Assembly (NCBI RefSeq): GCF_017876815.1
Contig: NZ_JAGIOS010000002.1
Coordinates: 600,001 to 632,000 of the forward strand
Reading direction: 5' to 3'
From: Sinorhizobium meliloti
Lineage (GTDB): Bacteria > Pseudomonadota > Alphaproteobacteria > Rhizobiales > Rhizobiaceae
DNA: 32,000 bases
Shown here piece by piece: positions 1-12,320 of this stretch. Position 1 is the stretch's first letter; every line of letters begins with the position of its first letter. Below the pieces are notes generated by a model. It was not told where the DNA came from, did not search any database, and saw only the letters and a program-made list of their open reading frames with translations. The position numbers were made by a program, and so were the translations under genes.

Positions 1-165
1 CAACGAAATAGCGCAGGTGACGTAGCTCCATGGCATAGCCCTATCGATACATTGTTACTCTGGATCGAGTTGAACAATATATTGGACGTATCGCGGAGCA
101 AGCCGGTAAAGTCGTTGCAGAGAGGCGGAGGCACCGTCTCCGCCACGCATCTCGATGGGACACAC

Positions 166-1002
166 ATGCAGAAGAACTACTATTTTCCGGTAGGCGGCCA
201 TCCTCCTCAGACCAACCTGCTTTCCGACCGCGCCATCTTCACCGAGGCCTATGCGATCATTCCAAAGGGCGTCATGCGCGACATCGTGACGAGCTACCTG
301 CCCTTCTGGACGAATACACGGCTCTGGGTACTGTCGCGCCCGCTTTCCGGCTTCGCCGAGACCTTCTCGCAATATATCATGGAGGTCGGCCCTTCCGGCG
401 GCAGCAACCGGCCGGAGACGGATCCCCGCGCCGAAGCCGTGCTGTTCGTGGTGGACGGCGAGTTCCATCTGACGCTCGGCGATGAGACGCATCTGATGCA
501 GTCCGGCGGCTATGCCTTCATCCCGCCCGGCACCGAATGGAGCCTCAGAAACGAATCCGGTGCGCCGACGCGATTCCACTGGATCCGCAAGGCTTATGAG
601 AAGGTCGACGGGGTTCCCCTTCCCGAACCGATCGTTACCAACGAACGCGACATCCCCCCCTCGCCCATGCCGGAAACGGATGGGCGCTGGGCCACCACCC
701 GCTTCGTCGATCCTTCCGACATGCGCCACGACATGCATGTCACGATCGTGACCTTCGAGCCCGGCGGCGTCATCCCGTTCATGGAAACCCATGTGATGGA
801 ACACGGACTCTATGTGCTCGAAGGCAAGGCCGTTTACCGACTCAACAACGACTGGGTGGAGGTGGAAGCCGGAGACTATATGTGGCTCAGGGCCTTCTGC
901 CCGCAGGCCTGCTATGCCGGCGGACCGGGCAAATTCCGCTACCTGCTCTACAAGGACGTGAACCGCCATATGACGCTCGGCAATCCGGGCAGACTCGCCT
1001 GA
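166..1002 (+). CDS. allE: (S)-ureidoglycine aminohydrolase-like bicupin (AllE/YlbA family)
   Basis: ORF 52..1002 starts at a TTG. I trimmed it to the first ATG (166). It has two cupin halves. The C-terminal half (ETHVMEHGLYVLEGKAVYRLNNDWVEVEAGDYMWL...YKDVNRH) closely parallels the C-terminus of E. coli AllE/YlbA as I recall it. Confidence 0.75.
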   Translation: MQKNYYFPVGGHPPQTNLLSDRAIFTEAYAIIPKGVMRDIVTSYLPFWTNTRLWVLSRPLSGFAETFSQYIMEVGPSGGSNRPETDPRAEAVLFVVDGEFHLTLGDETHLMQSGGYAFIPPGTEWSLRNESGAPTRFHWIRKAYEKVDGVPLPEPIVTNERDIPPSPMPETDGRWATTRFVDPSDMRHDMHVTIVTFEPGGVIPFMETHVMEHGLYVLEGKAVYRLNNDWVEVEAGDYMWLRAFCPQACYAGGPGKFRYLLYKDVNRHMTLGNPGRLA

Positions 1003-1039
1003 TATTGCAGCCTGCCGTGATCCGCCATAGCTTGGGCGC

Positions 1040-3496
1040 ATGGCGACGCCTAAGCTGGAGGCCTACCGCAAGAAGCGGGATTTTTCGAAGACGCCGGAGC
1101 CGGTCGGAAATCTGACCGCCGGCGGCAACCGCTTCGTCGTGCACAAACACCATGCGACCGCCGACCACTACGATTTGCGGCTTGAGGTCGACGGCGTGCT
1201 GAAAAGCTGGGCGGTGCCGAAAGGTCCGTCGCTCAATCCGGCCGACAAGCGGCTGGCGGTGGAGACGGAGGACCATCCCCTCGACTATATCGACTTCGAG
1301 GGCGTGATCCCCGAAGGCGAATATGGCGGCGGTCCGATGATCGTCTGGGACAAGGGCGTCTGGGCGCCGATGGGCGATGTCGACGACGACCTGCGCAAGG
1401 GCGCCTTCAAGTTCCGCCTGGCAGGGGAGAAACTCAACGGCGGATGGATGCTGGCCCGTCTGAAGCGTCGCCCGGGAGAGGAGGACCAGCGCAACTGGCT
1501 CCTTTTCAAGGAGCGCGATCCGGCCGCCGACACATCGATCGATATCCTTGCCGCCCGGCCGGAAAGCGTCAAATCCGGCCGGCGGATCGAGGAACTGGTG
1601 GAGAAGCCGATGGCCCCGCCAAAGCCGGTCAAGCTCAATCCCGGCGCGCTTGCCGGTGCGGTCAAGGCCGCACAACCCGAACGCATCGAACCTCAACTCG
1701 CAACACAGACGATTCTCCCCCCGGAAGCCGAAAAGGACTCGAAAAAGCCCGAGCGCTGGCTGCACGAGATCAAGTTCGACGGCTATCGCACCATGGCCCA
1801 CGTGGCGGACGGAAAGGTGCGCCTCGTCACCCGCGGCGGGCTCGACTGGACGAAGCGCTACGGAGACCTGCCGGAGGCTTTCCGGCGGCTGCCGTGCCGC
1901 GATGTGATCATCGACGGCGAGATCGTCGTGCTGGACGAGACGGGGGTCAGCCGCTTCGCGCTGCTGCAGGATGCGCTTTCCACCGGCGCCGGCAACAGCC
2001 TCGTCTTCTACGCCTTCGACCTCCTGCATCTCAACGGCTGGAACCTTTTCGACGTCCCGCTCGAAAAGCGCAAGGCACTGTTGAAGCAATTGCTTGCAGG
2101 GCAGGTCTCAAGCCGCTCGGCGATCCAGTTCAGCGATCATGTGCTGGGTGAAGGGCGCGCGCTTTACGACCGGGCCTCCGAGATGGGCCTGGAAGGGATC
2201 GTCTCCAAACGCATCTCGGCACCCTACCGAAGCGGCCGGTCGAAGACCTGGACCAAGACGAAGGCTTTGAAGGCGGAGGATTTCGTGATCGTCGGCTACA
2301 CCGTTTCGGAGGCGGCCGAGGGCATTGCGTCGCTTGCACTCGGAGAGTGGGCCGACGGCGAGCTGGAATATCGCGGCAAGGTTGGAACCGGCTTCGACGC
2401 GCAGATGCTCAAGGAGTTGCTCGCAAGGCTCGAACCCTTGCGCGCCGGCGCCGCAAAGCTCGAGGGAGCGCCGAGGGAGATCATCTGGGTGCGGCCCTTG
2501 CTCCGGGCGCATATCCACTACGGCAACCGGACGACCGATAACGTCCTGCGTCACGCCGTCTTCAAGGGGCTCCGCGACGTCGAGCTGTCGACGCCGGTTT
2601 CCATGTCGAGAAAGCGCCTGATCTCGGACGCGGACCTCGCCGGCATATCGATTACCAACCCGACCCGGCGGCTCTTCGGCAAATCCGGCCCGACCAAGCT
2701 CGACCTTGCCGTCTATTACGCGATGATCGGCGACTTCATGCTGCCGCATATTCTCGGCCGTCCCGTTTCGCTGGTACGCTGCCCGACCGGCCGGACGCAG
2801 GATTGCTTCTTCCAGCGCCACCCTTTTACCGGCATGCCGCCTTCGGTCGCGACGTTCCAGGCAACCAACTCGGAGGGCGAGGCGAAAACCTACCTGTCGG
2901 TCGAGGACGCGAGAGGATACCTGGCGCTGGCGCAGTTCGGCGTCGTCGAATTCCACAATTGGGGGACGACGCGCAAGCTGCTCGGCAAGCCGGATCGCGT
3001 CGTCTTCGATCTCGATCCCGGCGAGGGCATCGCCTGGCGCGAGGTGGTCGAGGCCGCGATCCACATCAAGGCCGAACTCGAGGCGCTCGCGCTGGTACCC
3101 TTCGTAAAGACATCTGGCGGCAGGGGAGTGCACGTCGTCGTACCGGTCGTGCCGAAGCTCGACTGGAAGAAATTCCATCAGGCGACGAGCGCGCTCGCGA
3201 CCCGTCTCGCGGCCACCGCTCCCGCCACCTTCACCACCACCATGGGCAAGGACAACCGCATAAGGCGCATTTTCATCGACTTCCATCGCAACGCCCGCAG
3301 CCATACCTGGGCGGCCCCCTATTCGCTGCGCGCCCGCACCAATCTGCCAGCCTCCACCCCGCTCAGCTGGGCGGATCTGGAGACTATCGACGCTCCGGCG
3401 GATTTGAACTATTCTTCGCTGCCGGGCCTTCTGGCCACGTCCGGCGATCCCTGGGCCGATATCGACGACTCCGCGAGGGATCTGCCTATACTGTAG
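1040..3496 (+). CDS. ligD: Multidomain ATP-dependent DNA ligase LigD (phosphoesterase - ligase - primase/polymerase)
   Basis: 818-aa ORF. The N-terminus has the LigD phosphoesterase signature (KLEAYRKKRDFSKTPEP, FVVHKHHATADHYDLRLE). The centre is an ATP-ligase adenylation domain (WLHEIKFDGYR motif I lysine, EGIVSKR). The C-terminus is a Pol/primase domain (VVFDLDPGEG, KTSGGRGVHVVVP). Stop is TAG at 3494-3496. Confidence 0.95.
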   Translation: MATPKLEAYRKKRDFSKTPEPVGNLTAGGNRFVVHKHHATADHYDLRLEVDGVLKSWAVPKGPSLNPADKRLAVETEDHPLDYIDFEGVIPEGEYGGGPMIVWDKGVWAPMGDVDDDLRKGAFKFRLAGEKLNGGWMLARLKRRPGEEDQRNWLLFKERDPAADTSIDILAARPESVKSGRRIEELVEKPMAPPKPVKLNPGALAGAVKAAQPERIEPQLATQTILPPEAEKDSKKPERWLHEIKFDGYRTMAHVADGKVRLVTRGGLDWTKRYGDLPEAFRRLPCRDVIIDGEIVVLDETGVSRFALLQDALSTGAGNSLVFYAFDLLHLNGWNLFDVPLEKRKALLKQLLAGQVSSRSAIQFSDHVLGEGRALYDRASEMGLEGIVSKRISAPYRSGRSKTWTKTKALKAEDFVIVGYTVSEAAEGIASLALGEWADGELEYRGKVGTGFDAQMLKELLARLEPLRAGAAKLEGAPREIIWVRPLLRAHIHYGNRTTDNVLRHAVFKGLRDVELSTPVSMSRKRLISDADLAGISITNPTRRLFGKSGPTKLDLAVYYAMIGDFMLPHILGRPVSLVRCPTGRTQDCFFQRHPFTGMPPSVATFQATNSEGEAKTYLSVEDARGYLALAQFGVVEFHNWGTTRKLLGKPDRVVFDLDPGEGIAWREVVEAAIHIKAELEALALVPFVKTSGGRGVHVVVPVVPKLDWKKFHQATSALATRLAATAPATFTTTMGKDNRIRRIFIDFHRNARSHTWAAPYSLRARTNLPASTPLSWADLETIDAPADLNYSSLPGLLATSGDPWADIDDSARDLPIL

Positions 3497-3588
3497 TCGT
3501 TGAGGCGCGGGATGCAGGCGGAAACCGCATGCACTTTCCTCATCCCGCTCTGGCAGATGTGATCGTAGTGCCGCGTAGGGAGAAAACC

Positions 3589-4473
3589 ATGGCACCCAGG
3601 GCAAGTTGGAAGGGCTATATCAGACTGAGTCTCGTGAGCTGTCCGGTGAGGCTTTACCCCGCCACCAGCGCAAGCGAGCGCATTTCCTTCAATCAGCTTC
3701 ACAAGGACACCCATAACCGGATCAACATGAAGCCCGTCGATCCGGAGCTCGGCCTCGTCGAGCGTTCGGACCTCGTGAAGGGCTACGAATACGAAGACAA
3801 GAAATACATCATCATCGAGGATTCGGATCTGGAAAGCGTCCGGATCGAATCCAATCACACGATGAACATCGAGGCTTTCGTCGACGCCGGTTCCGTTGAC
3901 GTCATCTATCAGGACGCCCCTTATTACCTGGCGCCCGACGGGGCCATGGCCGAGGAAACCTTCGTCGTCCTGCGTGAAGCTCTGCGCCGAAGCGGGAAAC
4001 TCGCGATCGCCCGTCTCGTGCTGTCCAGCCGCGAACGGGTGGTGACCATCGGTCCGCGCGAGACCGGAATGTTCGTCTGCACCTTGCGCAATCCCAACGA
4101 GGTGCGCTTCGCGGCGGATTATTTCGGCAACATTCCGGTCGGCAAACCGGATCCCGAGATGCTGCAGCTTGCCGAAGCGCTCATCGAGCAGAAGACGACC
4201 ACCTTCGATCCGAAGCAGTACGAGGACCGCTACGAGGTCGCGCTGATGCAGATGATCCGCGAGAAGCTCAAGGGTCACAAGCCGATCATTGCGCAGGCGC
4301 CCGAACGCGGCAACGTCGTCAATCTCATGGATGCCCTGAAGGCGAGCCTTTCCCAGGCCAAGCCGCCCGCTCGGAGCAAGCCCAAGGCGGAGCCCGCAGC
4401 AAAGGAGCCCGCTGCCAAAGCCGCGGCGGCGAAACGCGTAACTGCTAAACCCGCGGCCAAGAAGAAAGCCTGA
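3589..4473 (+). CDS. ku: Ku DNA end-binding protein (bacterial NHEJ)
   Basis: ATG at 3589 follows a gggagaaaacc ribosome-binding site. The N-terminus MAPRASWKGYIRLSLVSCPVRLYPATS is a canonical bacterial Ku start. It has the Ku core and a Lys/Ala/Pro-rich basic C-terminal tail. The longer in-frame ORF from 2803 overlaps ligD and has Arg-rich shadow composition. Confidence 0.95.
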   Translation: MAPRASWKGYIRLSLVSCPVRLYPATSASERISFNQLHKDTHNRINMKPVDPELGLVERSDLVKGYEYEDKKYIIIEDSDLESVRIESNHTMNIEAFVDAGSVDVIYQDAPYYLAPDGAMAEETFVVLREALRRSGKLAIARLVLSSRERVVTIGPRETGMFVCTLRNPNEVRFAADYFGNIPVGKPDPEMLQLAEALIEQKTTTFDPKQYEDRYEVALMQMIREKLKGHKPIIAQAPERGNVVNLMDALKASLSQAKPPARSKPKAEPAAKEPAAKAAAAKRVTAKPAAKKKA

Positions 4474-5558
4474 TGGCGCTTGCCGGTCGGACATTCGGTA
4501 TCGTGGGCGCGCTCGCCGCCTTTCCGCGGCGGCTGGCGGCTCGCGAGGTCGAGCGCCAGGGCGGGCACCTCAGGCGCGGTGTCAACAGGCAGACGAAGTT
4601 CGTGGTCTTCGGGCGCGGGCTGCTCGCAAAGGCGTCCGAAGCAGAGATCGAGGCTCGCTTCGACAGCGAAAGCGGGCAGCGTCGGCGCGTGCTCAGCGAA
4701 AACGGCTTCCTCCGCCTGCTCGGACTGGCGAGCGCCCCGGAAACATCGGCGCTTACGCGGCAATCGCTCGTCGACCAGTCCGGGCTCTCCCCTCGCCACC
4801 TCGATCTTCTGTCGTTGTTCGACGCTTTCGAGCATGACGGCGAGCCCTATTCTTTCCGCGATCTGATCCTCGCCAGAAAATATGCGGGACTGATGGCCAG
4901 CGGCGCCGGCTGGGGCGCGATCGCGCGCTCGGTCCACCGCTCCGGAAACGTCGCCTCCCTCACCGCGCTCTCGCTGCACCACGAAGGCAAGGATACGATC
5001 TATGCGCGACGCGCCGAGGGCTTGAGCGAGCTCGACGGTCAATTGCTGCTCGACGTCGGCTCTCCCGACGAGGAGGCGCTCGAAGATCTCTTCGCTCAGG
5101 CCGAAGCGGCCGAAGAGGCGGGGGAATACGACCAGGCGGCCGCGTTCTACCAGCGCTATCTCGCCATCGACCGCACCGACGAGGTTGCAGCGTTCAACCG
5201 GGCCAACTGCCTCAGAGCCGCCGGGCGGGAGGCCGAAGCGGCGCATGACTATGCCCGCGCCATAAAGCTCGATCCTTGCTTCGTCGAAGCCTGGTTCAAT
5301 CTTGCCGGGCTGATGGGCGAACGTGGGCGCACGGACACGGCCAGGCGGCATCTGAGGAGAGCGATCGAAATCGATGGCGATTACGCCGATGCCATCTTCA
5401 ACCTGGCGAAGCTGGAGTTCGATGCCGGCAATCTCGCCGAAGCCCGCCGCTGGTGGATGCGTTACCTCGCGCTCGATCAGCATTCCGAATGGGCACGCGC
5501 CGCCGAGCGCGGCGTGCAGTTCGTGAACCTTCATCTCCTCTCCAGAACGGCTGGCTGA
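4473..5558 (+). CDS. BRCT domain / TPR repeat protein, possibly with a central MerR-like HTH segment; function unknown
   Basis: Its ATG overlaps the ku stop (TGATG at 4471-4475). Residues 1-85 (GRTFGIVGALAAFPRRLAAREVERQGGHLRRGVNRQTKFVVFGRG...RVLSENGFLRLLGL) match the BRCT pattern seen at the C-terminus of NAD-dependent ligases. Residues ~210-340 carry 3-4 TPR-like repeats (AAFYQRYLAIDRTD, AHDYARAIKLDPCFVEAWFNLAGL, RRHLRRAIEIDGDYADAIFNLAKL, ARRWWMRYLALD). GC3-rich codon usage. Confidence 0.75.
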   Translation: MALAGRTFGIVGALAAFPRRLAAREVERQGGHLRRGVNRQTKFVVFGRGLLAKASEAEIEARFDSESGQRRRVLSENGFLRLLGLASAPETSALTRQSLVDQSGLSPRHLDLLSLFDAFEHDGEPYSFRDLILARKYAGLMASGAGWGAIARSVHRSGNVASLTALSLHHEGKDTIYARRAEGLSELDGQLLLDVGSPDEEALEDLFAQAEAAEEAGEYDQAAAFYQRYLAIDRTDEVAAFNRANCLRAAGREAEAAHDYARAIKLDPCFVEAWFNLAGLMGERGRTDTARRHLRRAIEIDGDYADAIFNLAKLEFDAGNLAEARRWWMRYLALDQHSEWARAAERGVQFVNLHLLSRTAG

Positions 5559-5559
5559 C

Positions 5560-6201
5560 ATGAGCGGAAAATTCCTGTTCGACGGGCCGGGCGATGCGCC
5601 CGTCACCATTCTCCTCGCGCATGGAGCCGGCGCGCCGATGGATTCGACTTCGATGACGGCGGCCGCCATGGCGCTTGCAGGGGTGGGTTTTCGCGTCGCC
5701 CGCTTCGAGTTCGGCTATATGGCAGCCCGGCGCACTGCCGACGGGCGCAAGCCCCCGCCCCGCGCGGAAACGCTCAATCCGGAGTATCGGGCGGCCATTG
5801 CCGAGCTCGGCGCCCAAGGCACCCTCGTGATCGGCGGCAAGTCCATGGGCGGTCGCGTCGCCAGCATGGTCGCCGACGACCTTCATGCCGAGGGCAAGAT
5901 CGCCGGGCTCCTTTGCCTCGGCTATCCCTTCCATCCCCCCGGAAAACCGGACCAGTTGCGCACCCGACATCTTACCGATCTCAAGACGCCTGCACTGATC
6001 TGTCAGGGGACCCGCGACGAATTCGGCACCCGCGACGAGGTTTCGCGATACGCCTTGTCCGACAGGATCGAACTTCTCTGGCTGGAGGACGGCGACCACG
6101 ACCTCAAGCCGCGCAAGACAGTCTCGGGCTTCTCGACCGCAGATCACCTGAAGACGCTGGCCGAGGCGGTTGCGCGATGGGCGGATCGCCTCGCGCCTTG
6201 A
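5560..6201 (+). CDS. Alpha/beta-fold hydrolase (COG3571 / KANL3-Tex30-like family)
   Basis: ATG lies 1 nt after the preceding stop. 213 aa. A nucleophile elbow GGKSMGG, an acidic residue in QGTRDEFG and a His in EDGDHDLK give a visible Ser-Asp-His triad in the canonical order. Confidence 0.8.
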   Translation: MSGKFLFDGPGDAPVTILLAHGAGAPMDSTSMTAAAMALAGVGFRVARFEFGYMAARRTADGRKPPPRAETLNPEYRAAIAELGAQGTLVIGGKSMGGRVASMVADDLHAEGKIAGLLCLGYPFHPPGKPDQLRTRHLTDLKTPALICQGTRDEFGTRDEVSRYALSDRIELLWLEDGDHDLKPRKTVSGFSTADHLKTLAEAVARWADRLAP

Positions 6202-6208
6202 GCTCCTC

Positions 6209-6982
6209 ATGAAGATCGCGACCTTCAACATCAACGGCGTGAACAAGCGGCTCGACATCCTCTTGACCTGGCTCGGTACGGCCGAGCCGGACGTGGTCTG
6301 CCTGCAGGAGCTCAAGGCGACTGACGGACAGTTTCCGAGAGCCGCGATCGAGGCGGCGGGTTACGGTGCCGTCTGGCGGGGCCAGGCCGCCTGGAACGGC
6401 GTTGCCATTCTCGCCCGCGATCGTGAGCCGGTGCTCACGCGAACCGGGTTGCCCGGCGATTCCTCGGATACGCAGAGCCGCTACATCGAAGCTGCGGTGA
6501 ACGGCATCCTGATTGCGTCGCTCTATGCGCCCAACGGCAATCCGCAGCCCGGGCCGAAATTCGACTACAAGCTCGCCTGGCACCTGCGCTTCAACCAGCA
6601 TGCCGCCGCGCTGCTCGAGACGGGTGTGCCGGTGGTGCTCGCCGGCGACTACAACGTCGTTCCGGAACCGCGCGACATCTATCCGACCCGCTCCTACGAC
6701 GACAACGCCCTCGTCCAGCCGGAAAGCCGCGCAGCCTTCCGGAGCCTTGTCGATCAGGGCTGGCTCGACGCACTGCGCAAGATCCACCCGAAAGAGCAGC
6801 TCTTCACTTTCTGGGACTACCGCCGCAACCGCTGGCAGCGCGACGCCGGCCTTCGCCTCGACCACATTCTCCTGAGCCGCAAGCTCCGGCGCCGCCTGAC
6901 CGGCGCCGGCATCGACCGGGAGATCCGTGCGCTTGAAGGGTCGAGCGACCATGCGCCGGTATGGGTGTCGATGCGGGATTAG
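6209..6982 (+). CDS. xthA: Exodeoxyribonuclease III (AP endonuclease / 3'-5' exonuclease)
   Basis: ATG at 6209 is 7 nt after the hydrolase stop. MKIATFNINGVNKRLD...VVCLQELK, LAGDYNVVPEPRD and the C-terminal SSDHAPVWV are classic ExoIII/EEP nuclease motifs. 257 aa. Confidence 0.92.
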   Translation: MKIATFNINGVNKRLDILLTWLGTAEPDVVCLQELKATDGQFPRAAIEAAGYGAVWRGQAAWNGVAILARDREPVLTRTGLPGDSSDTQSRYIEAAVNGILIASLYAPNGNPQPGPKFDYKLAWHLRFNQHAAALLETGVPVVLAGDYNVVPEPRDIYPTRSYDDNALVQPESRAAFRSLVDQGWLDALRKIHPKEQLFTFWDYRRNRWQRDAGLRLDHILLSRKLRRRLTGAGIDREIRALEGSSDHAPVWVSMRD

Positions 6983-7709
6983 TTCCTGCACGTTTTGCAG
7001 CTTTCGCTGGCAGGCGACCGGACGGCCAGCTTCCTCCACCGGCGTGCCTTGCGTTTCTTCCACCAGATGATGACGCCGGTGGCGGATAGCATGGCGACCA
7101 GCGCGCCCATCAAGGTCATGGAGACCTTGAACGGAAGACCCCACACGGCTGCCATGTGCAGGGCAGTCAGCCAAGTCGTGACGGTATCGCCGGCCGCTTG
7201 CCCGGTGGGCAGGTAGATTCCGAGAAATGCGCCGCTGTCGCCATGGAAAGCGAGACGCGTATTCCCGCCTTCACGGAACTCACCCGCGTCACAACTCGAT
7301 GTCACGATGTCACGATGTAGGTGTAAACCGCGCCGAGGGTCGTACCCCGCCCAGTCTTCCCTTTCTACGGCAGATCCGCGTGCCTTGCGTGCTCGGCGAC
7401 AAGTCGCCGCGCCACGGCGAGCGCCTCCTTGCGATCGATCAGCGGCTCGTAGCGCGGCTCGGCGAGCCTGGGAACATGTTCCCGGAAGCGAGTGGCCGCC
7501 TGCGTCGGCAGGGGCGCCTTCGTCACCGGATTATAGACTTCTTTCAGATTGAGAGAGACCGAAGACCAGGCCAGCACGAACAGCATAGCCCAAACCCAAA
7601 GCCCGCCTGCGCGGTGGAGATCGAAGCTGGACTTGTGCGGCCCGCCATAAATCCGCAGCCGCCACGCCTTGCCCCATTGCCGCCGGAAGTTCTTGGCCCG
7701 CGGTGTCAT
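6979..7709 (-). pseudogene. PepSY-associated TM-helix (PiuB-like) membrane protein remnant: 5'-truncated, in-frame TAG, and frameshift
   Basis: ORFs 7365..7709 and 6979..7305 are consecutive parts of one PepSY_TM-type protein (FDLHRAGGLWVWAMLFVLAWSSVSLNLKEVYNPV ... LAFHGDSGAFLGIYLPTGQAAGDTVTTWLTALHMAAVWGLPFKV...GVIIWWKKRKAR). They are separated by a TAG at 7365-7367 and a frame change at an 8-bp tandem duplication (7297-7318). There is no N-terminal ~150 aa; a stop lies just upstream of 7709. Confidence 0.6.
7297..7318. repeat. 8-bp unit cgatgtca repeated 2.75 times (tandem duplication inside the PepSY remnant)
   Basis: Read directly: cgatgtca cgatgtca cgatgt. Removing one 8-bp unit joins the upstream reading frame (..GAVYTYIVT) to the downstream ORF (SSCDAGEF...). 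Confidence 0.9.
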
Positions 7710-7896
7710 GTTTAGTGACTGAAATTGCTCGCCTTAGCGTCCGAACGACTAGTCAAGGCGTGCGGGACTCCCCAAATCTGCATTCGCACTTTCTTGGCAA
7801 GACGTTGCTATTTTACCACAAACCAGGCGATCAACCACTAGCGGAAGCTCTCGCCGCAACAGCCTTCGCTGGATTCAGCTGCAGGAAATGTTCGCC

Positions 7897-8703
7897 TCAA
7901 AGGCAGCTGGTGATGCCACCGTCGACATAGAGTATGTGACCGGTGACGAAGCTCGATGCGGCCGATGCCAGGAACACGGCGGCCCCTGCCAGCTCGCCGG
8001 TATCGCCCCAGCGGCCAAGCGGCGTTCTCTGCTCGAGCCATGTCGAGAACTTCTCGTCCGAAACCAGCGCACTGTTCAGTTCCGTCTTGAAGTAGCCTGG
8101 CGCAAGCCCGTTGACGCGGATGCCGTATCGGCCCCAGTCGAGCGCCATGCCTTTGGTCAGCATTTTGAGCCCGCCTTTAGACGCGGCGTAGGGCGCAATC
8201 GACGGACGTGCGAGTTCGCTCTGGACCGAACAGATATTGATTATCGTCCCCTCGCGGCGTTCGATCATCCCCTGAACGACCGCCTGGCCGACAAGGAAAG
8301 CACTCGTCAAATTGGTTTCGATGACGCGCCTGAAGGCGTCTTCCGGGAATTCGTGAAGCGGCGTGCGGTGCTGTATTCCCGCATTGTTGACCAGAATGTC
8401 GATACGGCCTCGCTCGGTGAGAATATCGGCCACCGCTCGGCCGATCTCGGCCGACTTGGTGACGTCGAAGGCCGAGGTTCCCACGGTGAAGCCGTGCTCT
8501 TCGAGTTCCGCACGCGCACCGGCAAGGCGCGCCTCGTCGCGACCGTTGAGGATAACTGACGCCCCCGCCTCGCAAAGAGCGTGCGCCATGGTGAGGCCGA
8601 GCCCGCCGCTCGATCCGGTAATCAGGGCGACCCGGCCGCTCAGATCGAAAAGCGCGGGAAGACCGCTTGTCCGCGGCGCGGGGTTTGAGGCGCCATCCAT
8701 CAT
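7897..8703 (-). CDS. Short-chain dehydrogenase/reductase, gluconate 5-dehydrogenase (IdnO/Gno)-like
   Basis: The 3' 268 codons of the 411-aa ORF 7897..9132, starting at MMDG (ATG at 8703 or 8700). TGSSGGLG Rossmann motif, NNAG, catalytic S...YAASK, and an IdnO-like tail RTPLGRWGDTGELAGAAVFLASAASSFVTGHILYVDGG. Confidence 0.85.
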   Translation of the reverse strand: MMDGASNPAPRTSGLPALFDLSGRVALITGSSGGLGLTMAHALCEAGASVILNGRDEARLAGARAELEEHGFTVGTSAFDVTKSAEIGRAVADILTERGRIDILVNNAGIQHRTPLHEFPEDAFRRVIETNLTSAFLVGQAVVQGMIERREGTIINICSVQSELARPSIAPYAASKGGLKMLTKGMALDWGRYGIRVNGLAPGYFKTELNSALVSDEKFSTWLEQRTPLGRWGDTGELAGAAVFLASAASSFVTGHILYVDGGITSCL

Positions 8704-8833
8704 GTCTCGGGCTCCTTGGACCGGCGTGCCACTCGGCACGGCGGGCATGGCGGAGCTTTGGCTTCGCCACCCACCCGGAACATAAGAGAAAACAGGGCTG
8801 TGGTACAGTTCCTGACCGGCGGTCGAGGTGGGA

Positions 8834-9268
8834 TCAGCGTCCCATCCAGCCGCCGTCCACGGTGAGGATCGTGCCCGAGACGTAATCGGATGCCGCCGAG
8901 GCCAGAAAGACCGCCGGGCCGGCAAAGTCCTCGGGCCGGCCCCAGCGGCCCGCGGGATGCGCGCGAGAATGGATTCGGCGCGGCTCGGATCGTTGCGCAA
9001 GGCCTCGGTATTGTCGGTGGCGATGTAGCCCGGGGGCAATGGCATTGATCTGAATGTTCCGGGCTGCCCATTCGTGGCGAAAGCCTTGGCGAGCTGGCCG
9101 ACCCCGCCCTTCGAGGCCGCGTAGTCCGGCACGGTGATGTTCCCTGGAAGGTCAGGAGCGAGGCGGTGAAGATCACCTTCCCGCCCTTCCCGCGGGCGAT
9201 CATGCCGCGGCCCACTGCCTGGGTCAGCAGAACTGCGCCGTAAGATTGGTTTCGATCACCTCGTCCCA
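8834..9268 (-). pseudogene. KduD-like SDR (2-dehydro-3-deoxy-D-gluconate 5-dehydrogenase-like) pseudogene: N-terminally truncated with at least 4 frameshifts
   Basis: The SDR sequence can only be read by hopping frames: WDEVIETNLTA / VLLTQAVGRGMIARGKGGKVIFTASLLTFQG / NITVPDYAASKGGVGQLAKAFA / EWAARNIQINAIAP / GYIATDNTEALRNDPSRAESILARIP / RWGRPEDFAGPAVFLASAASDYVSGTILTVDGGWMGR*. The TGA is at 8834-8836. Single-nt indels sit near 9141-9146, 9068-9078, 9032-9036 and 8952-8956. The Rossmann N-terminus is absent. Confidence 0.8.
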
Positions 9269-9455: not shown

Positions 9456-9535
9456 GAACGCAGCGCCTCGTCACGCCTCTGAGCCGTTTTCAGGAGCGTC
9501 TCGAGCATTACGACAGGGTCGGCCAATGAGGGCGT

Positions 9536-10041
9536 TCATGTTCCCGGTGGATGCAATCGCGTGTCCAGCGCAAATGACTCTTGGAATTTGAGGGCATAGG
9601 CGGCCGGCGCGGCGCCCCCGAGAAAGACCAGGTTCCAGCTATGCGGCGAGACCGCGCTCGGGATTGCGACGAACCGATGGCGTCGAAGCAGATCATCCCC
9701 ATAGGCTTGCTGTCCCGCGCCGGGAATGCCCGGCCGTGCCCAGTTGGGATTAGGCACGCTTTTCGGATCGACGACATAGACATCGCCGGCGTCCGCGATG
9801 GCTGCGGCCGTCATTGTATGCGCCACCATGTCCAGCGCCCGAAAACCCTTATGAACCGCGACCTCAAGGATCGCCGTCGCAGGGTCGAGTGAGCAGTAGA
9901 CCGCACGACCCCCTTACTGTTCCAGCGGCCGCCCACTCGGTAGGCGCCTTCTCCGCTATCCCATGTCGGTGCGTGGACGGCTTGGTCGAGCCGCCAAGCC
10001 ACCAACTCGGTCCCGCCGAGCGCAACCGGCAGAAGGGTCAT
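9536..10041 (-). pseudogene. RES-domain toxin (RES/Xre type II TA family), disrupted by a -1 frameshift in a G5 run
   Basis: ORFs 9811..10041 (MTLLPVALGGTELVAWRLDQ...YRVGGRWNSKG) and 9536..9829 are two frames of one RES protein. Shifting frame at the C5 run 9889-9893 (G5 on the coding strand) restores ...RWNSKGGRAVYCSLDPATAILEVAVHKGFRALDMVAHTMTAAAIADAG.... The ATG overlaps the antitoxin stop (ATGA at 10038-10041). Confidence 0.75.
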
Positions 10042-10523
10042 GCATAGATGCCGTATTCGAGGCGGTCGAGATGATCCTCGACCAGCTCGACGCCGGGCGG
10101 CGTCCCGAGAAGATCAATCGGGCGGCGTTGGTCTAGTCCGACCGCCGGACGCTCCAGCCATTGTTCGGCTTCCGCCTGCGATCCAAAAATATCCGTCGCC
10201 TTTGCGAGTATTTCCGCAAACTTCCACGCGCGACCACTCTGCTCCTGGCTAAGCGGCTTGTTGGGTGTCTCCTTGCGCCGCTGCCACGTGCGCAAACTCA
10301 TACCTACTGCCTTTTCGAGCGACTCGGTCTTGCCGATGAAGACGAGATTCCCGACAAGGTGATCCAGTGCCGATGCCGGCAGACCACGCAAGAGAAGCTC
10401 GTGCGCGTCGAGCGCATTGGTCAGGTGATGCGCCAGAACACGCGAACCGCCGAGTAAGGTCTCGATTTTTTGCAGCTCACCACCGCCTGCCGCTGGTGTC
10501 GGTGCTTTTGCCGCGAGAGCCAT
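10038..10523 (-). CDS. Xre-like antitoxin with DUF2384 C-terminal domain (partner of RES toxins; MbcA/ParS-like)
   Basis: 161 aa. RBS aggagaaaaatt precedes the ATG. The C-terminus AEQWLERPAVGLDQRRPIDLLGTPPGVELVEDHLDRLEYGIYA is the typical DUF2384 signature. It sits immediately upstream of, and overlaps, the RES gene. Confidence 0.85.
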   Translation of the reverse strand: MALAAKAPTPAAGGGELQKIETLLGGSRVLAHHLTNALDAHELLLRGLPASALDHLVGNLVFIGKTESLEKAVGMSLRTWQRRKETPNKPLSQEQSGRAWKFAEILAKATDIFGSQAEAEQWLERPAVGLDQRRPIDLLGTPPGVELVEDHLDRLEYGIYA

Positions 10524-10625: not shown

Positions 10626-12320
10626 TCAGTCCCTGTGTCTGTCGTCGCCGAGGAAGGTCCTGGCGATTTCGGAAACGAGCTCCGGGAGGACCCTGAACGC
10701 GTAGGGTTCATGGACGCGCTCGAACTTCTGGTGGAACTCCCGTCCCCAAGGTCCGAGATTGACGGTCGGAAAACGCAGCGCGTTTTCGGATGGCCGATCG
10801 ACCAGACGTGAGATCGGGGTGTTGTCCGAAACGACCTGGCTGCCGCTGGCGGCAAGCCCGAGGAAACTCATGTCGGAGATTCCGTAAAAATGCGGCTTCC
10901 AGATGAGGCTTCGCGCGGGATCGTTGCCAAGACCGGCACGCGCCTTCTCGATCGCCTGATGAAGGGAGCGGTCGTTTCCTTCCGCCAGGCGCAGATGGCT
11001 GGGCGGATAATGCAATCCCGAGAAGCCGATGACGATGGCGGGGCCGGAAAGGCGCGCGATACCGACGAGCCACTCAGTAAGTTGCCGCGTAGCGACGAGC
11101 GGGTTGTCGCTCTGGGCGAATTCCCTTTCCTTCTCGGCATAGAATGCGTCGAAGCCGTGCCCGAAAACGCGTGCAGCCGCCGCCCGCAATTCCTGGAACG
11201 ACAGAAGGCGCGGCTTGGCTGGTAGGCCGCCCGCACTTCTGCCGACGAGCTTGCCGTATTCCGCCGACTGTGCCGCAAACGTCTCGATGGCCTCGTTCGC
11301 GCCGGTCAGCACCTCCTCTCGGAAGCGCTCAAAGAGTGCGTCCGCCGTCATCGAATGGTAGAGCCAGTTGAAAGCTATCCAGAAGCGCTCCGGCGTCGTC
11401 ACTTCGTAACCGTCGCGCAGATCCTTCGCCTCGAGGCAGATCGGCGGCGGCGAGATGTCGTTGTCGTCGCGATCCGCCAGGGAAGCATTCCCTTCCAGGC
11501 GTGCCAGGATCCCGGCCGCCATGGCCTGTGCGCTCACCCCTTCGAAGGGGTAGCTCGCATGAGAGCTGCAGCCGATCACCAGGGCAAAGGGTAGGAGCTT
11601 GCCGATCGTGCCGGCGTAAACGGCCCGCCCTTCGCTGCCGTCGCCCTGATCCGAGGTCACGTCGAGGTTGATGCCCCCGGCTATTTCGATGTCGAAATCC
11701 CTGACCAAGCCGGGCAACGCGTCCCGGAGCGATCGCATTCCCCGGCTTTCCCGTTCCTCGTCGGGGGTGGCGACCAGCATGAGATTGCCCTGTCGGTCCG
11801 TGTCGGCCGCGAATTGTTCGAGACAGGCTATGGCCACGGCGAGTCCGCTCTTCATGTCGAGCAGGCCGCGGCCGGGGAGGAAGTCGCCACTCGCCAGGTC
11901 CTGCAGGGCCCGCTCTTCCTGTTCGGATCGGCCGGTTCGCGCCGACAGGCTTTCGATGAGTGCATCCTTGAGCGCCAGGCTGTCGCATGCCAGCGCCTTG
12001 AGCTCGTGATAGTTGTCGGTCGACACGGTGTCGAAGTGGCCGGCCATGACCAGTGTTCGCTTGCCCGTGCCGCGAACGAGCGCAACGACATTGCGGGTCA
12101 GCGGTTCGCCGTGACTTGCAAGGAGGCCCAGGTCCTGCGGATGCTCCCGAAAATAGGGGAGTTCGCCGAGAAGCCCATGGAGGCGATCCGCGAAGGATGC
12201 TTCGCCCGGCGTGCCGGTTTCACTGGGCCAGGACGTCATGCGCAGAGCGAATTGCCGGACGCGCTCGCTGTCGATCCGGCTTCCAGCGCGAGAGACAGTC
12301 TCTTCTTGTGCATTCGTCAT
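10626..12320 (-). CDS. M20-family metallohydrolase, RocB (arginine utilisation protein)-like
   Basis: 564 aa, the size typical of RocB. M20 metal/catalytic motifs: VMAGHFDTV, GRGLLDMKSGLAV, LVATPDEERESRG. Confidence 0.75.
   Translation of the reverse strand: MTNAQEETVSRAGSRIDSERVRQFALRMTSWPSETGTPGEASFADRLHGLLGELPYFREHPQDLGLLASHGEPLTRNVVALVRGTGKRTLVMAGHFDTVSTDNYHELKALACDSLALKDALIESLSARTGRSEQEERALQDLASGDFLPGRGLLDMKSGLAVAIACLEQFAADTDRQGNLMLVATPDEERESRGMRSLRDALPGLVRDFDIEIAGGINLDVTSDQGDGSEGRAVYAGTIGKLLPFALVIGCSSHASYPFEGVSAQAMAAGILARLEGNASLADRDDNDISPPPICLEAKDLRDGYEVTTPERFWIAFNWLYHSMTADALFERFREEVLTGANEAIETFAAQSAEYGKLVGRSAGGLPAKPRLLSFQELRAAAARVFGHGFDAFYAEKEREFAQSDNPLVATRQLTEWLVGIARLSGPAIVIGFSGLHYPPSHLRLAEGNDRSLHQAIEKARAGLGNDPARSLIWKPHFYGISDMSFLGLAASGSQVVSDNTPISRLVDRPSENALRFPTVNLGPWGREFHQKFERVHEPYAFRVLPELVSEIARTFLGDDRHRD

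Follow-up and report, generated by a model that had tools for sequence, protein, structure and literature searches.

A BRCT/TPR protein gene co-inherited with ku2 at the LigD2/Ku2 end-joining locus of Sinorhizobium meliloti and its relatives

Canonical bacterial non-homologous end joining (NHEJ) relies on two components, a Ku homodimer and LigD, as in Mycobacterium, Pseudomonas and Bacillus. The Ku2/LigD2 pair of Sinorhizobium meliloti is a described case (Kobayashi 2008; Dupuy 2018). In eukaryotic NHEJ, BRCT domains serve recruitment: those of Pol lambda, Pol mu and TdT act with Ku-XRCC4-Lig4, the tandem BRCT of Lig4 associates with XRCC4, and XRCC1 pairs with Lig3. In the BRCT domain of RFC1, the Thr of a TG dipeptide contacts the 5'-phosphate. 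In S. meliloti, LigD2 is the main NHEJ ligase and Ku2/LigD2 the main end-joining pair (Dupuy et al. 2018, PMC6379672). Links with additional enzymes have been described in other systems. The mycobacterial LigC, which is Ku-independent and BER-associated, binds ExoIII/XthA, EndoIV and FPG (Plocinski 2017, PMC5663958), and gene-neighbourhood analysis revealed non-canonical PolX genes adjoining LigD in Alphaproteobacteria (Prostova 2022, PMC9226535).

The window analyzed here, a stretch of 32,000 nucleotides, belongs to pSymB of S. meliloti SM11, and its ligD2 region is 99.6% identical to that of S. meliloti 1021 pSymB. Five genes, placed on one strand by an earlier note on this DNA and all on the forward strand, compose the locus: ligD2 (1040..3496), ku2 (3589..4473), a gene called BT here (4473..5558; SMb20687, a tag assigned via the coordinates in the supplement of Schluter 2013), an alpha/beta hydrolase gene (ABH; 5560..6201) and xth, an exodeoxyribonuclease III paralogue (6209..6982). 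LigD2 (818 aa) displays 3'-phosphoesterase, ATP-dependent ligase and Prim-Pol domains (Pfam LigD_N, DNA_ligase_A_M, DNA_ligase_A_C and LigD_Prim-Pol; TIGR02776, 737 bits), and Ku2 (294 aa; Pfam Ku, E 2e-44; TIGR02772, 284 bits) has a Lys/Ala/Pro-rich C-terminal tail. Identical to it in domains and adjacency, this pair is the canonical two-component system. The locus differs from it, however, in that BT appears translationally coupled to ku and is co-inherited with the Ku clade, and in that two enzymes are appended in rhizobia.

The junctions agree with what the earlier note had read. The ligD2 stop (TAG, 3494-3496) and the ku2 ATG at 3589, which is preceded by GGGAGAAAACC, are separated by 92 nt (3497..3588, forward strand) containing the ku2 ribosome-binding site and an imperfect hairpin, UGCAgGCGG-AAA-CCGCaUGCA, at about 3512-3534, with no T tract after it; this 92-nt gap folds no better than shuffled sequence (z = -0.74). 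The ku2 stop overlaps the BT start (cTGATGg, 4471-4475), a single base lies between the BT TGA and the hydrolase ATG at 5560, 7 nt separate the hydrolase TGA from the xth ATG at 6209, and the 3' end of xth (6982) overlaps by 4 nt a convergent ORF of the minus strand (6979-7305). A scan of the forward strand from 600 to 7800 returned no terminator, which also holds for the region before 6979-6982. Tight spacing in one genome alone is little proof.

The five genes LigD-Ku-BT-ABH-Xth are colinear and on the same strand in 80/80 species retrieved from Rhizobiaceae and Phyllobacteriaceae (Sinorhizobium/Ensifer, Pararhizobium, Mesorhizobium, Aminobacter and Neomesorhizobium), these 80 genome loci being the closest relatives only (BT identity at least 65%); two loci without ABH and Xth are cut at a contig end. 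Ku2 identity ranges from 83 to 94% across these loci. Since the block is colinear in 80 species while its flanks differ, the commonest flanking gene family being found in 15/80 loci, the three extra genes are no local accident. In 81/81 loci, Ku and BT overlap (-4 or -1 nt) or lie no more than 40 nt apart. In Mesorhizobium, the remaining junctions of the block widen to 170-1570 nt via multi-copy palindromic repeats, which never occur between ku and BT in the 81 loci.

The linkage of BT to Ku extends well beyond these relatives. Defined by its N-terminal 200 aa, the BT family comprises 204 clusters (50% identity) among 1.84 billion representatives, and homologues of 29-43% identity adjoin Ku in 8/9 informative loci. 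The position of LigD is shuffled in these remote loci (LigD-Ku-BT; Ku(-)|BT-LigD; Ku-BT-> <-LigD), and one BT homologue (L180) has neither Ku nor LigD within 7 kb. In the reverse sample, 80 metagenome loci picked by Ku alone, BT was present in 20 loci and missing from none when Ku was at least 52.8% identical to Ku2, and present in 5 and missing from 29 below this value (Fisher p = 1.7e-10, with a threshold set after the data were seen). Whenever present in these Ku-selected loci, BT lay directly downstream of Ku on the same strand (25/25). The co-occurrence of the BRCT/TPR gene with ku, which the earlier note had suggested surveying, is hence strongly positive in both directions. In a simple NJ tree of Ku, 33/33 informative sequences of the Ku2 clade are linked to BT. 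Among plasmid records, 87 carry a Ku of at least 80% identity and 87 carry BT, and BT was absent from all 637 records whose Ku is another paralogue (best match under 60%, and 45% or less in the sampled rows). Ku identity and BT identity drop in step across loci, and the sequences of Ku, BT and LigD have diverged side by side, to identities as low as 29-55%, which fits a long vertical co-inheritance; layouts that are rearranged but still adjacent point to selection on proximity. Ku-BT is the deepest link of the block, and BT is co-inherited with one Ku clade, usually with LigD alongside, across Alphaproteobacteria.

BT (361 aa) comprises an N-terminal domain (aa 1-85; 4473..4727), a middle domain (aa ~96-185; 4758..5027) and a C-terminal TPR domain of about 4-5 repeats (aa ~200-346; 5070..5510), all encoded on the forward strand; the same architecture is found in its full-length orthologues and in its remote homologues (about 360 aa). 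The TPR region matches multiple Pfam TPR families as well as the PDB profiles of consensus TPR and of the OGT TPR region. Concerning the N-terminus, the BT of the window has only a weak match to the LigA C-terminal region (NCBIfam, E about 2e-3), and Pfam BRCT is matched by 14/100 family members (best E 2.3e-6). The AF2 model of aa 1-200 (pLDDT 90.7, pTM 0.86) displays a b1-a1-b2-b3-a2-b4-a3 topology, and its top Foldseek matches in the PDB are the BRCT domains of RFC1 p140 (2ebu, E 7e-5; 2k7f), LigA (9a6z_B) and PARP1, with 2cok also listed; XRCC1/Lig3 and Lig4 BRCT structures are among the matches as well. The N-terminus is confidently modelled as a BRCT fold, with the RFC1 and LigA domains as its nearest predicted relatives. 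No paper describing BT was found in our literature search, and no mention of BT, the PF20408 hydrolase or Xth in the NHEJ literature searched.

Besides providing the top structural matches, the DNA-binding BRCT class (RFC1 p140, LigA, PARP1) shares with BT a G...GxL...R..A...GG...T..V.G pattern. By inspection, however, the canonical phosphate-pocket Ser/Thr is absent from BT, VG or GR replacing TG. The Thr of the RFC1 dipeptide is thus a Val or a Gly in BT, so that binding of 5'-phosphate ends by BT is not assured. A parallel can also be seen with eukaryotic end joining, where a non-catalytic BRCT adaptor element is likewise associated with a Ku-dependent process. Yet there is no sequence-level orthology, the BT fold is nearer to RFC1/LigA than to Pol X or Lig4, and the combination of BRCT and TPR is not used there.

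The earlier note had considered the five genes as a possible single operon and had named independent promoters as evidence against it. In S. meliloti, ligD2 and ku2 have independent promoters and stress induces ku2 only (PMC6379672). Because these promoters are separate, the five genes do not form one transcription unit, the break lying at the ligD-ku junction; the unit is therefore likely ku2-BT-hydrolase-xth, co-transcription 3' of ku2 being inferred. The stress-inducible promoter must lie within the 92-nt gap or the 3' end of ligD2. A sigma-70 consensus was not found in the intergenic region, and in most other Rhizobiaceae about 25 nt separate ligD from ku.

We propose, with moderate confidence, that S. 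meliloti has here its principal NHEJ system together with a conserved accessory module, in which BT acts as a Ku2-specific partner or adaptor. Most likely, ligD2 would be transcribed alone and the ku2 promoter would drive a ku2-BT-hydrolase-xth polycistron, in which the TGATG overlap could couple BT translation to that of Ku2 so that both proteins are made together. The BRCT and middle domains of BT may then contact Ku, or the DNA ends that Ku has bound, and the TPR domain could serve to dock LigD or end-processing enzymes. Our analysis suggests that in this alphaproteobacterial lineage "two-component" end joining has a third partner, BT. From domain content and neighbourhood, we infer an end-cleaning or recruitment role for the module, physical contact of Ku with BT, and the biochemical roles of BT, the hydrolase and Xth. 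Ectopic ku2 alone restored plasmid end-joining to near wild type in a ku2 deletion (PMC6379672), which implies that the deletion was non-polar or that clean restriction-cut ends can be joined without the downstream genes.

A different role for BT, which strikes us as rather improbable, would be to regulate transcription of the ku2 operon instead of taking part in repair. Its middle domain, possibly a MerR-like winged helix, would bind the promoter and its TPR or BRCT domain would sense a signal, a scheme that we judge equally improbable. Such a protein would supply the factor behind the stress induction of ku2, whose regulator was reported as unknown but distinct from RpoE2 by Dupuy et al. (PMC6379672), and tight linkage of a regulator to its target is common. 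The middle domain, made of helices and a beta-hairpin, is the most family-specific part of BT (LFDxxE...FRDL..AR motif); it gives weak MerR_1 matches in 2/20 members (E 1.6e-3) and aligns in register with Tn21 MerR by hhalign. However, this signal is below significance, with an hhalign probability of 8% and no match in a PDB profile search. The overlap or short spacing of Ku and BT suggests BT levels similar to those of Ku, which would be unusual for a regulator. The resemblance of the BRCT domain to DNA-end-binding and repair-scaffold classes also argues against this role, as does one locus (L088) where BT runs in the direction of LigD, with Ku transcribed divergently. The partner role of BT that we favor leaves to be considered whether the two downstream enzymes belong to the same function. 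The hydrolase (213 aa) is a member of PF20408 (Abhydrolase_11, E 5e-71; KANL3/Tex30-like family, COG3571 type) with a candidate catalytic Ser in GKSMG and Asp and His downstream; its sequence relatives in the PDB are weak only (1imj, CIB/ABHD14B, E 4.5e-3). Xth (257 aa) possesses the ExoIII motifs by inspection and scores above cutoff with TIGR00195 (234 bits, cutoff 183) and TIGR00633 (231 bits). Every locus whose Ku shares at least 64% identity with Ku2 contains the hydrolase, and every one with at least 73% contains xth, whereas the deeper BT-Ku loci have neither. From this distribution, they appear to be later additions than BT.

It is thus conceivable, though on balance unlikely, that function is confined to the Ku-BT(-LigD) link and that the hydrolase and ExoIII are general-purpose genes kept by operon inertia. 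That they landed there by chance in an ancestor of Rhizobiaceae/Phyllobacteriaceae, the hydrolase with an unrelated function and ExoIII with one in base-excision repair, is about as doubtful. Their absence from deeper loci fits this idea, and so do the repeat insertions of 170-900 nt that Mesorhizobium tolerates at the hydrolase/Xth junctions. Likewise, the tie of the hydrolase to ku, conserved in the block of 80 species, proved loose elsewhere, orthologues of 63-82% identity standing alone, without Ku2 or BT, on 135 Rhizobium plasmid records, and 3 of the 7 xth paralogues sampled have no NHEJ genes nearby. Nevertheless, no complete locus among the 80 species has lost either gene or changed the order, although the flanks have turned over, and in L120, where the arrangement is another one, a diverged PF20408 member is found upstream of LigD-Ku-BT in divergent orientation. 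Moreover, xth paralogues independently adjoin other ligD or ku genes on 4/7 sampled plasmids, in three layouts (Agrobacterium, where the paralogue of pAt is beside a ku-ku-ligC operon, Sphingobium twice, and Rhizobium rhizoryzae), so that the co-occurrence proposed for ExoIII is moderately positive. Transfer of the whole block as a horizontal cassette, the linkage reflecting co-transfer and not shared function, seems very improbable to us. The block does reside on pSymB-type chromids and plasmids with flanks that differ between genera, but no integrase, transposase or repeat boundary was found at the flanks (window, L002/L083), and both the parallel divergence of Ku, BT and LigD and their rearranged but adjacent layouts speak against it.

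Within our model of a Ku2-linked accessory module, Rhizobiaceae/Phyllobacteriaceae would have gained the PF20408 serine hydrolase first and the ExoIII paralogue second. The latter could remove 3'-blocking groups (3'-phosphoglycolate, 3'-phosphate), incise AP sites and trim 3'-5' at "dirty" breaks arising from desiccation, heat or stationary phase, and may complement the narrower LigD phosphoesterase. The binding of ExoIII by LigC gives an earlier example of a ligase/primase-polymerase repair complex tied to ExoIII-type end cleaning: as in our locus, the LigC/Prim-PolC complex joins an ATP-dependent ligase and an AEP polymerase to 3'-end cleaning, but it is Ku-independent and acts on gaps and not on double-strand breaks, and its tie to ExoIII comes from protein interaction and not from operon structure with Ku (PMC5663958). 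The PolX-LigD loci also show that alphaproteobacterial NHEJ loci can recruit extra nuclease-type accessory genes; these are, however, of the PolX/PHP exonuclease family, and the study reports neither BT nor the PF20408 hydrolase nor Xth (PMC9226535). As a side observation, a Fpg/Nei gene lies directly upstream of LigD in two further loci (L086/L087).

The five genes lie in a 5.9-kb region identical (100%) to pSymB of Sinorhizobium meliloti SM11 and 99.6% identical to pSymB of strain 1021. All are on the same strand: ligD (1040-3496), ku (3589-4473), a gene for a 361-aa TPR protein with a BRCT-like N-terminus, here called BT (4473-5558), a gene for a 213-aa alpha/beta hydrolase of the Abhydrolase_11 family (PF20408), here called ABH (5560-6201), and xth, an exodeoxyribonuclease III gene by profile match (6209-6982). 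The ORF listing and profile searches showed that LigD possesses its ATP-dependent ligase, primase-polymerase and 3'-phosphoesterase domains (TIGR02776, 737 bits), and that Ku possesses the Ku70/80 beta-barrel core of bacterial NHEJ Ku proteins (PF02735, E 2e-44; TIGR02772, 284 bits for a cutoff of 150). The sequence was re-read at the junctions described in the earlier note, and these were confirmed: ligD ends 92 nt upstream of ku, with an imperfect hairpin but no T tract in the gap, the stop codon of ku and the start codon of BT share bases in TGATG, and the two following gaps measure 1 nt and 7 nt. The 3' end of xth reaches 4 nt into a convergent ORF. No terminator was detected on the + strand, and the sole sigma-70-like site found by the same scan is on the opposite strand. 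The picture of five co-oriented genes, closely spaced or overlapping and not separated by any terminator, was thus upheld. We also considered the hairpin of the ligD-ku gap as a terminator and ruled it out; this region does not fold better than shuffled sequence (z = -0.74) and its stability is not unusual. No Rfam family was matched in window 1-8000.

An antisense transcription start assigned to SMb20687 in the supplement of Schluter et al. 2013 maps within BT, and BT is therefore SMb20687. From the order of the locus tags, we infer that ligD2 and ku2 are SMb20685 and SMb20686, and the genes after BT SMb20688 and SMb20689. This start, SMb_TSS3292 (asRNA_2989) of strain 1021, corresponds to window ~5154-5252 on the minus strand and could give rise to an antisense RNA across the BT coding region; in the portion of that supplement examined, it is the only start listed for SMb20687.

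In S. meliloti, nearly all conventional NHEJ is carried out by Ku2 and LigD2, and end-joining in vivo is on record for strain 1021/2011, whose locus is 99.6% identical (PMC6379672). Despite their adjacency, ligD2 and ku2 are driven by independent promoters; heat and stationary phase induce ku2 and not ligD2, and the regulator behind this induction, unknown in that study, is different from RpoE2 (PMC6379672). The single five-gene operon proposed in the earlier note is not borne out by these separate and differently regulated promoters, and we thus reduced it to ligD2 on one side and, probably, a ku2-BT-ABH-xth transcription unit on the other. In such a unit, translation of BT would be coupled to that of ku2, and BT would be expressed from the stress-inducible ku2 promoter. 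The genes downstream of ku2 are not mentioned in Dupuy et al. 2018 (PMC6379672) or in the other NHEJ papers searched, and SMb20685 to SMb20689 are absent from the main text of the searched papers. A ku2 deletion is complemented to near wild-type by ectopic ku2 alone (PMC6379672). Mutants or constructs of ku2 that disturb the downstream genes may carry unrecognised polar effects.

A whole-protein model of BT built from a shallow alignment was mediocre at the N-terminus. Residues 1-200, modeled from a 100-sequence alignment of close and remote homologues, reached a pLDDT of 90.7 and a pTM of 0.86. In this AF2 model, residues 1-85 display the BRCT topology b1-a1-b2-b3-a2-b4-a3, in keeping with the ~90-aa fold. 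The significant Foldseek matches of the model in the PDB are BRCT domains without exception, the best ones for residues 1-85 being those of RFC1 p140 (2ebu, E 7e-5; 2k7f, DNA complex), E. coli LigA, PARP1, Dbf4 and XRCC1/Lig3. At the sequence level, the window protein has no Pfam BRCT match at E<=0.01 and a weak NCBIfam match to the LigA C-terminus (E ~2e-3); Pfam BRCT is matched by 14 of 100 family members (best E 2.3e-6). BRCT domains that bind phosphopeptides or 5'-phosphates contain a phosphate pocket made of a Ser/Thr-Gly pair after b1 and a lysine in a2. By inspection, BT lacks this canonical pocket, with V-G in the window protein and x-G-R in the remote clade, and only the arginine of the next motif is conserved. 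The most distinctive motifs of the family are located in residues ~96-185, which form helices and a beta-hairpin. This middle domain resembles a MerR-type winged helix only weakly: the MerR_1 profile gives weak matches in 2 of 20 members (best E 1.6e-3), hhalign aligns the domain in register with Tn21 MerR at a probability of 8%, and no match was obtained with CueR by hhalign or in a PDB profile search. None of these signals reaches significance. Finally, residues ~200-346 are TPR repeats, seen as tandem helical pairs in the whole-protein model and matched by TPR_2, TPR_1 and TPR_11 over residues 200-345. The older name of BT orthologues, 'O-linked GlcNAc transferase', can be ruled out, as BT resembles OGT in its TPR repeats only; the 361-aa protein terminates in the TPR region and no GT41 or other glycosyltransferase domain was found in it.

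The conservation of the block among rhizobia was analyzed with a one-genome-per-species scan using a BT alignment, which gave 466 relatives. The best 80 of these 466, with a BT identity of 65-89%, were retained and come from Sinorhizobium/Ensifer, Pararhizobium (including 'Rhizobium' herbae and giardinii), Mesorhizobium, Aminobacter, Neomesorhizobium and MAGs. When these best 80 loci were searched by tblastn with the five window proteins, the order LigD-Ku-BT-ABH-Xth and the strand were found to be kept in every locus with enough DNA. The flanks vary, the most widespread flanking gene family being present in 15 of the 80 loci, and on a Pararhizobium plasmid the block is set between quite different genes. 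Ku and BT either overlap (junction of -4 or -1 nt) or lie no more than 40 nt apart, in 81/81 loci. The LigD-Ku junction ranges from 19 to 1572 nt, and junctions longer than 100 nt are observed between BT and ABH in 28/79 loci and between ABH and Xth in 18/79. Locus L058, the one examined in Mesorhizobium, has long gaps (8791-9074, 11105-11314 and 11963-12135) made up of palindromic sequences, and equivalent enlarged LigD-Ku, BT-ABH and ABH-Xth gaps with multi-copy palindromic repeats are found in loci L066, L073, L076, L079 and others. Since the palindromes recur both at further sites within these loci and in the corresponding gaps of other Mesorhizobium loci, they are inserted intergenic repeat elements, of which the ku-BT junction, short as it is in every locus, is free.

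The link between Ku and BT was also traced from Ku. A search of plasmids with Ku2 gave 724 records with a bimodal distribution, 87 at >=80% identity and 637 below 60% (at most 45% among the matches listed). The BT N-terminus was found on exactly 87 plasmid records, all from Sinorhizobium, Ensifer or Pararhizobium; this agreement, in counts and genera, argues that BT accompanies Ku2-type Ku only. Another 80 loci, many of them on short contigs, were picked from metagenomes by Ku alone, through a scan whose query was an alignment of Ku proteins linked to BT. Among loci with a Ku identity to Ku2 of 52.8% or more and sufficient sequence beyond ku, BT lies directly 3' on the same strand in 20 of 20 cases; below this identity, BT is present in 5 and missing in 29 (Fisher p = 1.7e-10, for a threshold set post hoc). 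Across loci, Ku identity and BT identity drop in parallel. In a simple neighbour-joining tree of Ku, a single large clade contains Ku2 and all 33 informative BT-linked relatives, and two further small groups are also BT-linked. ABH is present from a Ku identity to Ku2 of at least 64% (L125) and Xth from at least 73% (L135, L109). These successive thresholds suggest a stepwise accretion, in which a LigD-Ku-BT core would have been joined by ABH and last by Xth.

Conversely, the N-terminal 200 aa of BT retrieved 204 clusters at E<=1e-3 among 1.84 billion cluster representatives. About 77 of them are full-length proteins of ~360 aa that keep the N-terminus-plus-TPR layout, with 25-66% identity; the remote clade bears only the labels 'Alphaproteobacteria bacterium' and 'Geminicoccaceae bacterium'. 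Remote BT homologues are near Ku in 8 of 9 informative loci, where gene order is shuffled and the neighbourhood retained; a further contig, L093, was left out of this count as too short. The arrangement LigD-Ku-BT is found in L084, L085, L086/87, L090 and L181, while in L088 BT and Ku are arranged head to head on opposite strands and LigD comes after BT. L094 displays Ku-BT with a convergent LigD, and L089 Ku-BT on a short contig. In L180, the sole exception found to BT-Ku adjacency, neither Ku nor LigD was found within 7 kb of the BT homologue (P0359, 7001-8128, ~36% identity to the window protein), whose divergent neighbour is a 438-aa coiled-coil protein. ABH or Xth follows BT in none of the remote loci fetched; the genes found there are ChaC, DUF72/IS1595, an unknown gene or a ketoacyl synthase. 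Database proteins resembling Rosetta-stone fusions of Ku with BT (P0163, P0242) or of BT with the hydrolase (P0175, P0130) are artefacts, with frameshifted Arg/Pro/Ala stretches throughout, and show adjacency only, not fusion. Like P0121, P0146 and P0154, they are gene calls riddled with frameshifts and come from error-prone assemblies of metagenomes; domain-fusion analyses could be misled by them.

Xth exceeds the cutoffs of both TIGR00195 (234 bits) and TIGR00633 (231 bits), and its catalytic motifs QE, GDxN, D..H and SDH are present by inspection. Of 7 plasmids sampled, 4 have an Xth paralogue with 56-61% identity next to NHEJ genes; the paralogues of the other 3 are not adjacent to such genes. 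On Agrobacterium fabrum pAt, a ku-ku-ligC operon is divergent from xth, with LigD 4.5 kb off; in Sphingobium yanoikuyae, ligD and xth overlap by 4 nt; in Sphingobium sp. RAC03, a GNAT acetyltransferase gene (L178 1468-2427) lies between Ku and ligD-xth; and in Rhizobium rhizoryzae, the coordinates place xth 1.3 kb from ku. The adjacency of ExoIII and NHEJ genes thus recurs independently, in different layouts. It is consistent with the reported binding of ExoIII/XthA and FPG by mycobacterial LigC (PMC5663958), and with an Fpg/Nei glycosylase gene (L086 3556-4482, L087 3949-4437) that immediately precedes LigD in one of the remote LigD-Ku-BT loci. Found repeatedly, and in several lineages of Alphaproteobacteria, this adjacency suggests that base-excision-type 3'-end cleaning is coupled to end joining in a general way, which is directly testable with existing assays, as is the locus itself in an established model organism. 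On a Shinella zoogloeoides plasmid (L179 1-5786), an xth paralogue is found with a helicase, dinB and an SOS-response-associated peptidase, without NHEJ genes, so this ExoIII subfamily enters several kinds of repair islands.

ABH matches Abhydrolase_11 (KANL3/Tex30-like) with an E-value of 5e-71 over profile positions 3-192 of 193, and inspection reveals a Ser-Asp-His triad made of the GKSMG serine with Asp and His downstream; its relatives in the PDB are marginal by sequence. ABH is present on 239 plasmid records in all, of which 135 are from Rhizobium, with orthologues of 63-82% identity. None of these 135 records holds BT or a Ku2-type Ku, so the tie of ABH to NHEJ is loose, and in the single Rhizobium locus inspected ABH stands alone. 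However, a clear PF20408 member (E 3.7e-45) is located divergently upstream of a remote LigD-Ku-BT in L120. Directly after the lone hydrolase of Rhizobium sp. WSM1274 comes a RES-toxin/Xre-antitoxin pair (L001 8656-9845), and in S. meliloti a similar pair follows xth at a distance of ~2.5 kb (L083 20418-21406, ~window 9457-10445). The Rhizobium locus may thus be a leftover of the same ancestral region, devoid of ligD-ku-BT-xth.

The earlier note had tied all three additional genes to ku and ligD. Judged by sequence comparison, the evidence for co-occurrence beyond chance is strong for BT and moderate for Xth, and this part of the claim holds; for ABH it is weak. Altogether, the locus is a Ku/LigD NHEJ system enlarged by a third gene of BRCT/TPR type, conserved and so far undescribed, and by lineage-specific enzymes. 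The best-supported reading makes BT a partner of Ku2-type Ku that would most plausibly serve as an adaptor or scaffold where Ku is bound to DNA ends, by mechanistic steps that are all inferred; in Rhizobiaceae and Phyllobacteriaceae, ExoIII and the serine hydrolase would have joined the unit as end-processing accessories. One main rival is that BT could be the missing ku2 regulator, for which the faint MerR likeness of the middle domain speaks, and against which stand a repair-scaffold architecture and a gene overlapping ku. ABH and Xth could also be mere passengers, a view favoured by the solitary hydrolases of Rhizobium and opposed by the repeated encounters of ExoIII with NHEJ genes. As for the third main rival, co-transfer of the genes as a cassette, the changing flanks speak for it, and the parallel divergence of Ku and BT and the reshuffled remote loci against it.

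Bacterial NHEJ is taught and modeled as a Ku plus LigD system, and structural and single-molecule work presumes that two proteins suffice. An attractive hypothesis, to which we give slightly less than an even chance, would be that Alphaproteobacteria have a distinct 'Ku2-type' NHEJ machine with BT as its obligate third subunit. As a BRCT/TPR scaffold, BT would bind the Ku ring or the DNA end and recruit LigD, and in rhizobia it would recruit a serine hydrolase and an ExoIII end-cleaner as well. In that case, two components would not be the universal rule of bacterial NHEJ. A parallel can be drawn with the BRCT-mediated assembly of eukaryotic NHEJ, of which BT, if an obligate scaffold, would be the first bacterial counterpart. 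More speculatively, the hydrolase or BT could help take off or modify Ku trapped on repaired DNA. If BT acts together with Ku, it would show a route by which a minimal NHEJ gains recruitment and end-cleaning layers, might help account for the differing behaviors of Ku paralogues in one cell, and would provide a simple bacterial model for BRCT-based assembly at DNA ends. Ku2 and LigD2 account for >99% of plasmid end-joining events in S. meliloti, making this the dominant NHEJ pathway of a genetically tractable model organism; the same locus encodes BT, whose architecture is that of a repair scaffold and whose gene, overlapping ku, has accompanied this Ku clade through Alphaproteobacteria.

Two neighbours of the block deserve mention. 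A gene for a bicupin (two Cupin_2 domains; 52-1002, +) precedes ligD2 on the same strand, at a distance of 37 nt. We rejected it as a sixth member, as it is kept upstream of ligD only within Sinorhizobium (loci of 11 species, with a split in two frames in strain Ak57) and groups with neighbouring ureide/glyoxylate genes; it probably belongs with these ureidoglycolate/glyoxylate neighbours and not with NHEJ. On the other side, two consecutive minus-strand ORFs, 6979-7305 and 7365-7709, match positions 249-295 and 159-231, respectively, of the 295-position PepSY_TM profile. Since they match separate parts of it, the PepSY-associated membrane gene convergent with xth appears to be truncated or frameshifted.
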